The notes under the pieces were generated by a model that was not told where the DNA came from, searched no databases, and saw nothing but the letters and a program-made list of their open reading frames with translations. Below, one piece after another: positions 20,929 through 24,709 of a stretch of DNA of 64,000 bases. Position 1 is the stretch's first letter; each line of letters begins with the position of its first letter. Source of the DNA: a phage; sequence record PX423614.1. One strand, 5' to 3'. Both the position numbers and the translations under genes were made by a program.

Positions 20929-20960
20929 AGGCTACCCATTTCGGGTGGCCTTTTCTTTTA
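20929..20960 (+). terminator. rho-independent terminator
   Basis: AGGCTACCC / GGGTGGCCT stem (one G-U), 5-nt loop, then TTTTCTTTT. Confidence 0.6.
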
Positions 20961-20980
20961 TAGAACCTAAGGTAATAAAT

Positions 20981-21232
20981 ATGTCTAAAGTAACTTATAT
21001 CACTGTAACTGATTTCCTCCCTTCTCTGAACACAACTGAGAGCTATACTTTTCCTGTAGAAAATGTTACAAGCTCTGTTGAAATGATTAAGTTTAATCAA
21101 ACAACAGCTCGTACTAACGTGGCTCTTCGTGGTCCTGATGGCAAGTTCATCTCCTTCCGTGATAAGGTTGTTCCTAAGCGTATTGCTAAATCTATTGAAA
21201 ATCTGAAACCTTTCCCTAACTTTGGTGCATAA
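20981..21232 (+). CDS. small protein, paralogue family C member 1
   Basis: RBS AAGG then ATG 20981; C-terminal TTARTNVALRGPDGKFISFRD...NLKPFP shared with next ORF. Confidence 0.5.
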   Translation: MSKVTYITVTDFLPSLNTTESYTFPVENVTSSVEMIKFNQTTARTNVALRGPDGKFISFRDKVVPKRIAKSIENLKPFPNFGA

Positions 21233-21233
21233 T

Positions 21234-21491
21234 ATGAAGATTAGCTTAATCCAAATTCGTGATCATCTCTTTAATGGTGACGCTCAGACTCATGACTACA
21301 AGGTTAATCAAGGACAACACCCTACCAATCACCTGATTGGAGGGATTTCTTTATTACCTAATAAAACAGCACGGACTAATGTAATGATTCGTGGTAAGGA
21401 TGGTAAATTCCTCTCTTATCGTGACCCTGAAATCTGTGCTATTGTTCGTACAGCCATGAACAACCTAAAACCATTCCCGACAGTGGAGTAA
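21234..21491 (+). CDS. small protein, paralogue family C member 2
   Basis: KTARTNVMIRGKDGKFLSYRD...NLKPFP; start overlaps previous stop. Confidence 0.5.
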   Translation: MKISLIQIRDHLFNGDAQTHDYKVNQGQHPTNHLIGGISLLPNKTARTNVMIRGKDGKFLSYRDPEICAIVRTAMNNLKPFPTVE

Positions 21492-21861: not shown

Positions 21862-23556
21862 GTGATGGATAACCCTGATAAGTTACCTTTCATAACGGAG
21901 ATGACAGTCGCTGATATAATCTCAAAACAGGCGAAGCATGGAGTCAACTTCAACAGAAGAAACGCTCGGTGGTTTGTTCACCTTCTCAAAGAGATTATTG
22001 TCAATATTGATAAAGAACTGATTCCTCTCCTCCCCAAAATGCGGGTGGATGGTTCAACTTATTCCAAACCTTTTAAGAAGTCCGGTGCTTTACAGAAGTG
22101 GCCTCAACTCTATTGTGATAGGGTTGGTCTTAAAAGAGAAGATATCGGTGGGGCGTTTACTTGCGTTGAGTATGTAGACTTTGACCCATCAAAAGATGCA
22201 CGTATCAAAGAAGCCTTGATGGATGAAGGTTTTATACCTCCAGAGTGGAATTATTCTAAGAAACCTTGGAATACTTTTGAAATTCGTAAAGCTATGAAGA
22301 AGTATGGTACATACTCTGCATGGTATTCTGCTTGGATTCGAGGTAACGCTAAAGAGAAACAGACAGCAGAGATGATAGATGCTGATATCCGAAGGTTTTT
22401 GGATAAACACTTCCGTTATCATACTGTCAATTATATGAAAGCCTATGTCAGCGGTTTAGGTCTTAACCCTAACAGGAAGAAGCCTGTAACCTTTGATGAA
22501 ATCAAAAAAGTTTTGGCTACATCAAACAAGTGGCCTACAGCCCCTACAAACCTTGAGGAGACTCTTGAAGAGGGGCTTGGGGGTGAGCTAGGGGGTGTAG
22601 GAAGTTTGCTTAAGAGACGCGTTGTAGCGGCTCACAGGCTAGGTTTGATTAGCGGGCTTATCGACAAGGAACGTAAAGATGGTAAGTTGTCCGCCGAAGC
22701 TAATAGCTGCGCTACTCCGACATTTCGTTTTAAACATCGCATTGTTGTTAATATTCCTTCTCGCGGTTTGTTTGGTCACGAGTGCCGCAGTCTTTTTCAA
22801 TCTGACTATTCCTCAGACGATAGTCATAACCATCCTTTCATCATTACCAACCATATCCCTGATGGGTGTTACGTACGAAAGGGTACTAACATTATCTATG
22901 AAATGGGAAAACCGGGCAAGAAAGACAAACCAATAGGTGCTTATAAATTTTATGTACCTGCTGGTCGTGAAGTCTTCTTAGGTTATGATGGCTCTGGTCT
23001 TGAGCTGAGGATGCTCGCTCACTACCTTATCAAAGAGTGTCGTGAGATGCTCGCTGAAGCAGAGCGGGAAAACAACCCAGCTAAGAAACGGGAAGCTGAA
23101 CGCGGTCTAGCTTCTGCTGTTATGTACAGAGATATTCTTTTAGAAGGAGATATTCACTCACATAACCAAAAACTTGCTGGCCTTCCTACTCGTGATAATG
23201 CTAAAACATTTATCTACGCATTCAACTACGGAGCTGGTGACGCTAAGTTAGGAAGCATCGTAGGTGGTGGCTCTGACGAAGGGGCTATCATGAGAGCAAG
23301 ATTCTTAGCAGAGAATCCTTGTATTGCAATCCTTATTGAACGTATGACAGAGAAAGCACAAAGTGGATATATCTACGGTGTGGATGGACGTCGTATTACA
23401 ATGAGAAGAGATGCAACTGGAAAGGTTATGGTCCATAAAGCCTTAAATACGCTCCTACAGAGCGCTGGGGCGATTGTTATGAAGTATGCAATGCTATTCC
23501 TCAATAAATGGATTGAGCGTGATGGTGTTCGTTGTGCGAAGGTTATCGACATGCAT
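21862..23556 (+). CDS. family A DNA polymerase, polymerase domain, exon 1 (ends within motif C)
   Basis: Motif A YDGSGLELR, motif B RDNAKTFIYAFNYGAG; track ORF continues to a stop at 23577, but reading stops being polymerase-like after ...AKVIDMH. Confidence 0.65.
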
Positions 23557-24164
23557 AAACTTTCATTGTGCATGTAAAAGTTGGTGAACTCGGTGAAACC
23601 CTACCATTAAGTTGGGGGCAATACCGAGCTAAGCTATTAGGAGATGATATGGCTAAGAAAACTCTTGTTTTGGAAACAACCGAAACAGGGTGTATCATCC
23701 CTATCTCACACAAACTTAACAAAGATGGTTATTTCAGAAAAGTAATAGATGGCAAATGGGTCATGTATCATAGATATGTTTGGGAAGAATCTTTTGGTTC
23801 TATTCCTGATGGTTATGAAATAAATCACAAATGCAAGAATAGGGCTTGTTCCAATCTTGAGCACTTAGAAATGATTGAAGGTTCAGAACATGCAATAGAA
23901 TCAAACACTGGAAGAAATGGAGATAGACAAGAAGCTGCAAGGCTTTATTGGCTAGAAACAGAATGCTCTGGTGTACATCTTGCAGAGAAGTTTGGTGTGA
24001 GCTTCGGAATCGGTTGTAGATGGATTCGGAAGTGGAAAGTGTAGAGACTATCCTAAGGGAGTAGGGGGTTAACAGGGAAACCCTCGAAGCGCCAACAACA
24101 GCAAATTAGCTATGCTGTTATGATATAGTCCGATACCCGAAGTAATTTGGGAATAACATAAATG
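23557..24164 (+). mobile_element. putative group I intron carrying an HNH homing endonuclease ORF, inserted at polymerase motif C
   Basis: Upstream exon ends with T (cat), insert ends with G, downstream codons GAT GAA restore ...VIDMH|DEGQF (HDE motif C); an HNH ORF lies inside. Confidence 0.5.
23649..24044 (+). CDS. HNH homing endonuclease
   Basis: RBS AGGAG before ATG 23649; YEINHKCKNRACSNLEHLE HNH motif. Confidence 0.65.
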   Translation: MAKKTLVLETTETGCIIPISHKLNKDGYFRKVIDGKWVMYHRYVWEESFGSIPDGYEINHKCKNRACSNLEHLEMIEGSEHAIESNTGRNGDRQEAARLYWLETECSGVHLAEKFGVSFGIGCRWIRKWKV

Positions 24165-24317
24165 GATGAAGGCCAGTTCACTGTACATCGTGATGATGTT
24201 AATATTCTGCGCACTCTCACTGAAGAGTGTGTCCGTAAAGCAGGGGAATACCTCAAGATGGAATGTCCTCTTGCATCAGATTGTAAGATTGGGCTTAACT
24301 GGAATCATACTCACTAA
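24165..24317 (+). CDS. DNA polymerase C-terminal exon (motif C to C-terminus)
   Basis: DEGQFTVHRDD...CPLASDCKIGLNWNHTH resembles the T7 DNA polymerase C-terminus (...LDTEGKMGPNWAICH) as recalled from memory; 51 codons, below the ORF track cutoff. Confidence 0.55.
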   Translation, partial: DEGQFTVHRDDVNILRTLTEECVRKAGEYLKMECPLASDCKIGLNWNHTH

Positions 24318-24628
24318 TGATTGATATCAAAACTGAAGTTAAATATAATCCCAAGCTCAATTTTGATGCTTGGGCAAAACTGATTCTTGATATACCTCTC
24401 CAAGATGTGGGTTACACACAAGTAACCTGCACAGCAGAAATTCCTACTCATGGGTTACGTCCGTGGAAAGGCGTATCAGTTGTAGATGTGATAAAAGAGA
24501 TGGTTAAAAGATGTGCCACTCAGTACGGAGGTGCATTAGAAGGTCGTCATTTCTACTACACCCGTAAGCAGGAGTCAACACAATACGAAACTTTCATTGA
24601 AGTTAACCTCTTTGTGGTGGAGAAGTAG
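24317..24628 (+). CDS. hypothetical protein (103 aa)
   Basis: ORF track; start overlaps polymerase stop. Confidence 0.45.
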   Translation: MIDIKTEVKYNPKLNFDAWAKLILDIPLQDVGYTQVTCTAEIPTHGLRPWKGVSVVDVIKEMVKRCATQYGGALEGRHFYYTRKQESTQYETFIEVNLFVVEK

Positions 24629-24709
24629 TGACTAGTTCAGTGGAAGAGTTGAATGGTATTACGAAATGAACTAGTCTTATTGATTAGTTCTTTTTAAGGA
24701 GACAAGGAA

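Follow-up and report, generated by a model that had tools for sequence, protein, structure and literature searches.

A predicted mobile group IA2 intron carrying an HNH endonuclease gene within the gene for DNA polymerase in a Gordonclarkvirinae phage

Gene 5 of phages PhiI and W31 is reportedly interrupted by a group IA2 intron that encodes the endonuclease I-TslI, and its splicing is said to have been shown experimentally by Bonocora and Shub in 2004 (J Bacteriol 186:8153). In those passages of PMC3428280 that cite Bonocora & Shub 2004, the PhiI/W31 introns are presented as IA2 structural models located at site 881 of Pol I, the His of the HDE motif, with an HNH open reading frame (ORF) in P6a. 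The signature of subgroup IA2 is given in the same paper as P7.1 and P7.2 linked by GUA, and other polymerase introns with HNH nicking enzymes that drive homing are assigned to SPO1, SP82, phi-e and Bastille (I-HmuI, I-HmuII, I-BasI) and to Pf-WMP3 (I-PfoP3I) (PMC3428280). The insert of phage K1F has been called a putative group I intron (PMC4925675). The element considered here occupies positions 23557–24164 of a stretch of 64,000 nucleotides (nt), hereafter the window, from phage sequence record PX423614.1. Judged from sequence, it is with a probability of roughly 0.93 a genuine mobile intron of group IA2 that carries a gene for an HNH homing endonuclease, and for which we infer splicing, endonuclease activity and homing. 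It is an additional member of the PhiI/W31 family, in a lineage whose public records carry no intron annotation.

The interrupted polymerase gene and its intron-less allele

The source of the window is an Escherichia coli podophage of the Gordonclarkvirinae, whose nearest records are ECBP2 and vB_EcoP_SU7 (SU7) with 96.6–96.8% identity over 23000–24700. The polymerase locus was resolved into the following parts:

21862–23556, + strand: exon 1 of a family A DNA polymerase gene, ending at the His codon CAT of motif C (HDE); assigned from the ORF list, Pfam, the T7 gp5 alignment and an intron-less homologue that is continuous here.
23557–24164, + strand: predicted group IA2 intron of 608 nt, with first base A23557 and terminal (omega) G24164; assigned from the indel, partial Rfam matches, homology and covariation.
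23649–24044, + strand: ORF of the putative HNH (HNH_3) homing endonuclease of 131 amino acids (aa) in the P6a loop, with ATG at 23649, TAG at 24044 and GGAG at 23640–23643 as Shine-Dalgarno (SD) sequence.
24165–24317, + strand: exon 2 of the DNA polymerase gene, DEGQF...NHTH, with the stop at 24315–24317; joined to exon 1, it aligns with the T7 gp5 C-terminus.

An earlier note on this DNA, made without database searches, had claimed that the polymerase frame leaves the conserved sequence after ...AKVIDMH and then stops, and these coordinates were confirmed. The frame from 21862, in which exon 1 matches Pfam DNA_pol_A (E 4.9e-14), reads ...AKVIDMH at 23556, runs over 7 codons of the insert (KLSLCM) and ends at TAA 23575–23577. 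Joining T23556 to G24165, which the note had proposed as the way to recreate HDE, gives ...VIDMH/DEGQF... (a slash marks the exon junction or its equivalent), a sequence gapless against T7 gp5 (...WVHDEIQ...) to the C-terminus with an E value of 3.6e-33; the exon-joined polymerase comprises 614/615 aa. The further claim of a downstream 51-codon ORF resembling the T7 polymerase C-terminus calls for a minor correction: the resemblance is borne out by the T7 gp5 alignment, but the ORF itself (24162–24317, MDEGQF...) is an artefact of an intron that ends in AUG, its ATG being the final 3 bases of the insert.

The comparison with an intron-less homologue, which the note had also suggested, supplied the exact boundaries. 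Relative HC-25922 has a single 614-aa coding sequence (CDS) in which GACATGCAT is followed directly by GATGAAGG, and the indel against it defines the insert as 23557–24164, which separates the motif C codon for His from that for Asp in the polymerase. What had been described as an insert of about 600 bp carrying an HNH endonuclease is exactly 608 nt long. These boundaries cannot be slid because exon 1 ends in T and the insert in G, and because the insert starts with A and exon 2 with G. Between SU7, which carries the insert, and HC-25922, which lacks it, 624 nt upstream are identical and 497 nt downstream contain 1 difference, so that the two phages form a natural intron-plus/intron-minus allele pair usable for homing work. 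The sole flank difference is exon 2 position +9 (window 24173), the third base of a Gly codon, which is T in SU7, C in the window and A in HC-25922; this position adjoins the P10 pairing and probably falls within the endonuclease target. The uninterrupted target in HC-25922 and EK010 reads ...ATTGACATGCATGATGAAGGACAG..., and ligated exons of the window would read ...GACAUGCAU/GAUGAAGG... with a CAU/GAU junction and the predicted junction peptide VIDMHDEGQFTVHR.

The ribozyme core and its covariation

Relatives of the window intron supply decisive evidence that its core exceeds chance. Scanning IMG/VR for the P4-P5 core sequence returned 107 loci, among them L082, an ORF-less 225-nt member located at the same H/DE site of a 39-kb T7-like contig. 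L082 scores 61.2 bits against the RF00028 gathering score of 50 (E 3.5e-15), and its Rfam alignment contains the same P3, P4, P5, P6/P6a, P7, P8 and P9 as were assigned in the window. The ORF-containing copy of Aeromonas phage vB_AhaP_PT2 (PT2) reaches 39 bits with RF00028 over its whole length. In the window, RF00028 matches 24045–24152 with 26.7 bits (E ~1e-4) and 23590–23654 with 14.3 bits, both on the correct strand. The elements assigned are:

23549–23575, + strand: P1, formed by exon ACAUGCAU (23549–23556) with the internal guide GUGCAUGU (23568–23575); U23556·G23568 marks the predicted 5' splice site, and L1 spans 23557–23567.
23560–23567, + strand: P10 guide strand CUUUCAUU, forming 8 bp with exon 2 GAUGAAGG (24165–24172).
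23580–23586 with 24090–24096, + strand: P3, GUUGGUG with CGCCAAC, in the P3/P7 pseudoknot; from covariation.
23589–23594 with 23623–23628, + strand: P4, CUCGGU with ACCGAG, enclosing J4/5, P5 and J5/4; from the Rfam alignment and the minimum free energy (MFE) fold.
23599–23602 with 23615–23618, + strand: P5, flanked by J4/5 GAAA and J5/4 CAAU; its loop is 9 nt longer, which is lineage-specific.
23629–23630 with 24038–24039, + strand: P6, CU with AG; from covariation, with the layout of the Rfam alignment of ORF-less L082.
23634–23637 with 24032–24035, + strand: P6a, CUAU with GUGG, enclosing the endonuclease ORF; from covariation, with the layout of L082.
24044–24050 with 24126–24131, + strand: P7, G(A)GACUA with UAGUCC and bulged A24045; reproduced by the MFE fold.
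24051–24060, + strand: P7.1, UCC-UAAG-GGA, between P7 and P3'.
24061–24063 and 24064–24085, + strand: GUA linker and P7.2, the IA2-specific insertion between P7 and P3'.
24097–24103 with 24113–24119, + strand: P8 hairpin, AACAGCA with UGCUGUU; from covariation, the MFE fold and the Rfam alignment.
24120–24125, + strand: J8/7, AUGAUA, followed by the P7 3' strand at 24126–24131; from the Rfam alignment.
24136–24151, + strand: P9 hairpin, CCCGAA-GUAA-UUUGGG, followed by the 3' tail to omega G24164.

The earlier note had argued that the junction nucleotides fit group I splicing, and this agrees with an 8-bp P1 whose U·G pair marks the 5' splice site, with the terminal G and with the 8-bp P10. P1 was reproduced in the unconstrained MFE fold, and P2 is absent from the window intron. 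Unconstrained folding recovered P1, P4 and P5 in the 5' half (z -2.97) and P7, P7.2, P8 and P9 in the 3' half (z -2.39). In the Rfam alignment, the P4-P5 region 23589–23628 corresponds to model positions 60–139, and J8/7 together with P7', AUGAUAUAGUCC, matches the consensus GAUAUAGUC; G24046-C24130 is the presumed guanosine-binding pair.

Covariation was scored on alignment A3, in which 16 homologues were cut at invariant anchors, the ORF was replaced by NNNN, variable loops were padded with N and MAFFT introduced no gaps. A plain MAFFT alignment, A2, had misaligned P5, P7.2 and P8, and A3 was used instead, with P7 and P10 scored as pseudoknots. The columns of P3, P9, P1 and P10 were set by their distance from invariant motifs or splice sites, and pairing was not consulted for them. 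In this alignment, standard pairs occupied 96.5% of 993 cells, compared with 34–47% when the partners were slid by 1–3 columns. Compensatory double changes occurred in 27 of 63 pairs, the covariation score was 0.349 against 0.05–0.10 for the slid controls, and none of 500 shuffles equaled any observed measure of pairing or covariation.

The individual helices contributed to this signal in different ways. P3 was paired in 100% of cells with compensatory changes in 6 of its 7 pairs, P9 was likewise 100% paired with such changes in 4 of 6 pairs and retained its GNRA loop, and P8 was 96.3% paired with changes in 4 of the 5 pairs tested. P4 and P5 were paired in 100% and 90.6% of cells, respectively. 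The second pair of P6 was C-G in 8 homologues and U-A in the other 8, and 3 of the 4 pairs of P6a showed double changes. The 5' strand of P7, G(A)GACUA, was invariant in 16/16 homologues, the outer pairs of P7.2 were 100% paired, and the P7.1 stem was unchanged across homologues with a variable tetraloop (UAAG, UUUG, UGCG, GAAA or GUAA). At the splice sites, P1 kept its U·G in 16/16 homologues, and the pair of exon position -6 with the guide was G-C in 9/16 and A-U in 7/16. P10 was paired in 89.8% of cells and changed on both sides in 4 of 8 pairs, exon position +6 being A or G opposite a guide U or C. Changes in the exon codons are matched by covariation in P1 and P10, and the guide is therefore re-tuned to each host gene. 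The candidate group I intron of the earlier note shows all features that can be predicted for such an intron at the level of sequence, among them a P3–P9 core backed by covariation, and has homology to the polymerase introns of T7-like phages.

Some pairings were tried and abandoned. P6 as GCU/AGU was dropped, since the ORF-less relatives and the Rfam alignment of L082 show a covarying CY/RG P6, and P3 as UUAGGA/UCCUAA or CCCUAC/GUAGGG gave way to the covarying GUUGGUG/CGCCAAC on the same grounds. Nesting P3 and P7 instead of pseudoknotting them left only 79% pairing, and separate brackets were adopted. Two copies of the heptamer AAGUUGG lie towards the 5' end of the intron, at 23578–23584 (J2/3 and the P3 5' strand) and at 23609–23615 (the lineage-specific extension of L5). 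The second occurrence, found in Gordonclarkvirinae copies only, could compete for CCAAC of the P3 3' strand and give a possible alternative fold.

Mobility, mechanism and rival explanations

The endonuclease ORF matched Pfam HNH_3 (E 2.3e-12), in keeping with the earlier note, and PHROG 6254, 'HNH endonuclease' (E 2.2e-43). Its final 13 nt also form P6a', P6' and J6/7 and supply P7 with its first base. The 131-aa product and the ORF products of the 13a, K1F, Vp_R1 and PT2 introns are collinear homologues, and the catalytic His...Asn...His residues were found in the motif EINHKCKNRACSNLEHL...SEH aligned across the family. The ratio of nonsynonymous to synonymous substitution (dN/dS) was 0.10–0.15 against PAS59 and 1-6af, with dS ~1, and by this measure the ORF is intact and under purifying selection. 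A protein search with the endonuclease gave 106 homologue clusters, a few of which had helix-turn-helix Pfam matches; the sequence search of the PDB gave no meaningful match, and I-HmuI was not reached by sequence. Upstream of the ORF within the intron, no promoter-like site was found.

By blastn against phage genomes, the insert was present at 85–100% identity in ~9 Gordonclarkvirinae and absent from ~15 related genomes of this group. At 65–68% identity over 83–98% of its length, the intron also turned up in polymerase genes of numerous T7-like phages, namely 13a, K1F, HZP2, VSG32 and others of Yersinia, Salmonella and Klebsiella. Two further carriers are a phage of Aeromonas and Vp_R1, a Vibrio phage of 112 kb (Grimontviridae). 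Identity to the polymerase introns of T7-like phages such as 13a and K1F is 65–69% over nearly the full length of the insert, and that of the intron core to the T7-like copies is 62–69%. The T7-like homologues end in ...GAAAG/GAUGAG with no in-frame ATG, and gene 5 of 13a and K1F is annotated in GenBank as a two-piece join. The PhiI/W31 intron family now reaches beyond the T7-like phages.

Among the window, PAS59 and 1-6af, the ribozyme arms (23562–23661 and 24062–24161) are 96–100% identical, and the middle of the HNH ORF (23762–23961) only 65–76%. Polymerase exon 1 of the window is 98–100% identical to that of PAS59 and ~78% identical to that of 1-6af. This mosaic suggests either that recombination moves endonuclease gene, ribozyme and exons as independent units or that the RNA is under unusually strong constraint. 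Considering the patchy presence, the near-isogenic plus and minus alleles, arms of 96–100% identity against exons of ~78% and the low dN/dS, the intron looks mobile. A broader proposal, which we hold tentatively and think somewhat more doubtful than probable, is that one ribozyme scaffold has spread over the unrelated phage families Autographiviridae (T7-like), Gordonclarkvirinae and Grimontviridae (Vp_R1), always at the H/DE codons and with re-tuned P1 and P10, and that in the Gordonclarkvirinae the arms (96–100%), endonuclease (65–89%) and exons (78–100%) assort independently. If true, the conserved RNA arms would be recombination handles for swapping endonuclease alleles, and the intron and endonuclease gene would evolve as separable modules.

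Several family members show features of their own. In PT2, another core of group I type is situated ~450 nt upstream of the H/DE intron (positions 27–249 of locus L008; RF00028 27.1 bits, E 2e-4) and carries the motifs GACUAUCC...AGAUAUAGUC; the PT2 polymerase gene may carry two introns. Klebsiella phage RCIP0053 has an extra P2-like hairpin, ACGUC-GAGUAAUU-GACGU, between the guide and P3 (~880–905 of locus L010), and in Vp_R1 the 3' tail after P9 is 14 nt longer (~1262–1307 of locus L007).

For the window, the following course may be proposed. The polymerase gene and the insert would be transcribed as one pre-mRNA, in which the intron RNA would fold into a P1–P10 ribozyme. An external guanosine would attack after U23556, and the freed exon 1 would then attack after G24164, giving ligated exons whose mRNA would encode the 614/615-aa polymerase with HDE restored. 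By analogy with the HNH enzymes of other phage introns, the 131-aa enzyme would nick or cut intron-less polymerase alleles of co-infecting relatives, and repair of the cut allele would copy the intron in (homing). Left unspliced, the RNA would yield a polymerase that ends short of the catalytic Asp and Glu, yet the phages SU7 and ECBP2, which carry essentially the same intron, are viable isolates.

The public records of ECBP2, SU7 and PE006 list two 'DNA polymerase' CDS and an endonuclease with no intron annotated, and taken at face value they would suit genes in pieces, in which the endonuclease gene split the polymerase and fragments of 571 aa and 51 aa (MDEGQF...) assemble non-covalently with no RNA splicing. 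The SU7 annotators indeed placed a ribosome-binding site before the small ORF, and an in-frame ATG (24162–24164) stands ahead of exon 2. However, such an arrangement leaves unexplained ~210 nt of non-coding sequence that is 96–100% conserved where the exons are ~78% identical, and this non-coding part folds into a covarying group I core whose guides covary with the exons. No GGAG-like SD sequence precedes 24162, and the introns of T7-like phages lack an in-frame ATG at their ends, so that a separate C-terminal ORF is not conserved; under a split, moreover, a single catalytic motif would be divided, with His in one piece and Asp and Glu in the other. A polymerase in two pieces is therefore very improbable. 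Slightly less credit is due to a decayed remnant that no longer splices, with a dead ribozyme or endonuclease and a polymerase that is a pseudogene or is rescued otherwise. A remnant would accommodate the sub-threshold Rfam score of the window, a P7.2 shorter and an L5 longer than in T7-like copies and the Cys-to-Ser and Asp-to-Asn substitutions of the endonuclease, but all core helices and junctions are intact, the ribozyme segments are extremely conserved, and the endonuclease ORF is full length with the dN/dS of 0.10–0.15. In addition, no second family A polymerase or further intron copy was seen near the locus, and the carriers are propagated isolates. Another kind of intervening element has nothing in its favor except that the interrupted site is conserved and catalytic, a location that inteins tend to share. 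The insert is out of frame and stops after 7 codons, HNH_3 is its sole Pfam match with no intein or reverse-transcriptase domain, and the Rfam scans gave no group II match, the group I core being positively identified; an intein and a group II intron are excluded by reading frame, domain and RNA-family searches, and the chance left to them is next to nil. A tRNA explanation was also considered and rejected.

Ordinary group I splicing is the best-supported account because the unspliced product is truncated, the exon 2 ORF lacks an SD sequence, its ATG is not conserved and the carriers are viable. Several points nevertheless weigh against a functional group IA2 intron of the PhiI/W31 family. The Rfam scan of the whole window at the gathering threshold of 50 bits gave no match, and in narrower e-value scans both matches stayed below 50 bits with none spanning the ORF; these sub-threshold scores arise because the 396-nt ORF splits the core. 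In the covariance-model search that the earlier note had recommended, both halves of the window intron match RF00028 with scores below the gathering threshold. The anchors of A3 were placed manually in view of the expected structure, and its pair counts lean towards the proposed structure. In the endonuclease, a residue that is Cys in every other family member is Ser in the window, SU7 and ECBP2 (RACSN versus RACCN), and the residue before the catalytic His is Asn in the Gordonclarkvirinae copies but Asp in those of T7-like, Vibrio and Aeromonas phages; the Ser and Asn substitutions may alter metal binding or activity, and the predicted endonuclease activity is uncertain because of them. Finally, the link to the spliced introns of PhiI and W31 (AY769989/AY769990) is drawn from site, subgroup, layout and homology to the 13a and K1F copies.

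Taking the group I intron reading as the basis for annotation, the polymerase of ECBP2, SU7, PAS59, PE006, 1-6af and the source phage should be described as one spliced gene, not as two CDS and hypothetical proteins. The SU7 genome paper mentions neither the polymerase, an endonuclease nor an intron, and in the library searched no paper was found that connects Kuravirus or Gordonclarkvirinae with an intron.

Around the intron, other features of the locus were recorded. The T7 gp5 alignment of the exon-joined polymerase begins near T7 residue 289 and Pfam covers residues 362–565 only; because of this, neither comparison detected in ORF 21862–23556 the 3'-5' exonuclease region that T7-type enzymes have at their N-terminus. 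Directly upstream of the polymerase gene, two adjoining small ORFs, 20945–21232 and 21222–21491 (both + strand), are paralogues with 35% identity (E 7e-15) and the common motif ...TARTNV.(L/I)RG.DGKF.S.RD...NLKPFP; they are a tandemly duplicated pair of unknown function. Directly after the polymerase stop, a near-consensus promoter of sigma-70 type, TTGATA-17-TATAAT with 11/12 matches, lies at 24321–24349 (+ strand), within the start of the next ORF, 24317–24628 (PHROG 35057, unknown function), and the SU7 record has an annotated promoter at the equivalent place.

Comparison with described introns

The earlier note had mentioned reports of group I introns in the polymerase genes of some T7-like phages, and those passages of PMC3428280 that cite Bonocora & Shub 2004 bear this out. 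Like the PhiI/W31 introns, the window intron is inserted at site 881, between His and Asp (...DMH/DEGQF compared with ...WVH/DEIQ in T7), and has P7.1 and P7.2 joined by GUA. It also follows the layout of this family in the absence of P2, in the HNH ORF placed in P6a with its 3' end overlapping P6a', P6' and J6/7, and in a collinear 131-aa endonuclease. The family extends to 13a, K1F, HZP2 and others, and homology connects the window intron with the copies in 13a and K1F.

Unlike the T7-like copies, the window intron resides in a podophage of the Gordonclarkvirinae (phiEco32-like, C3-morphotype), and the polymerase of this host shows no more than a distant relationship to T7 gp5. Its P1 and P10 guides are re-adapted to other exon codons than those of the T7-like copies, it has 9 nt more in L5, ~8 nt fewer in P7.2 and a longer P8, and its endonuclease has N-H in place of D-H, in addition to the Ser for Cys of the window/SU7/ECBP2 clade. 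No new mechanism is revealed, and the element is of a well-understood kind; as a case of guide-sequence co-adaptation to new exons it is a clear one.

The introns of Bacillus phages and Pf-WMP3 resemble the window intron in being of group I (IA2 in Pf-WMP3), in interrupting a family A polymerase gene and in carrying an HNH endonuclease. Those of SPO1, Bastille and Pf-WMP3 differ in position, being located at Pol I site 674 in the fingers subdomain (PMC3428280), whereas the window intron lies at 881 in motif C. Nucleotide homology of the window intron to the SPO1-type and Pf-WMP3 introns was not detected in the phage blastn.

More distant counterparts are the introns of phage T4 in td, nrdB and sunY (nrdD), which are IA2 ribozymes in genes of nucleotide or DNA metabolism with endonuclease ORFs looped out of peripheral helices. 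The T4 intron endonucleases are mostly of the GIY-YIG type (I-TevI, I-TevII), and the T4 ORFs have their own promoters. The window intron differs from them in host gene and site and in having an ORF with no promoter-like site upstream of it inside the intron. Its conserved P4-P5 core sequence recurs in many introns of IMG/VR.

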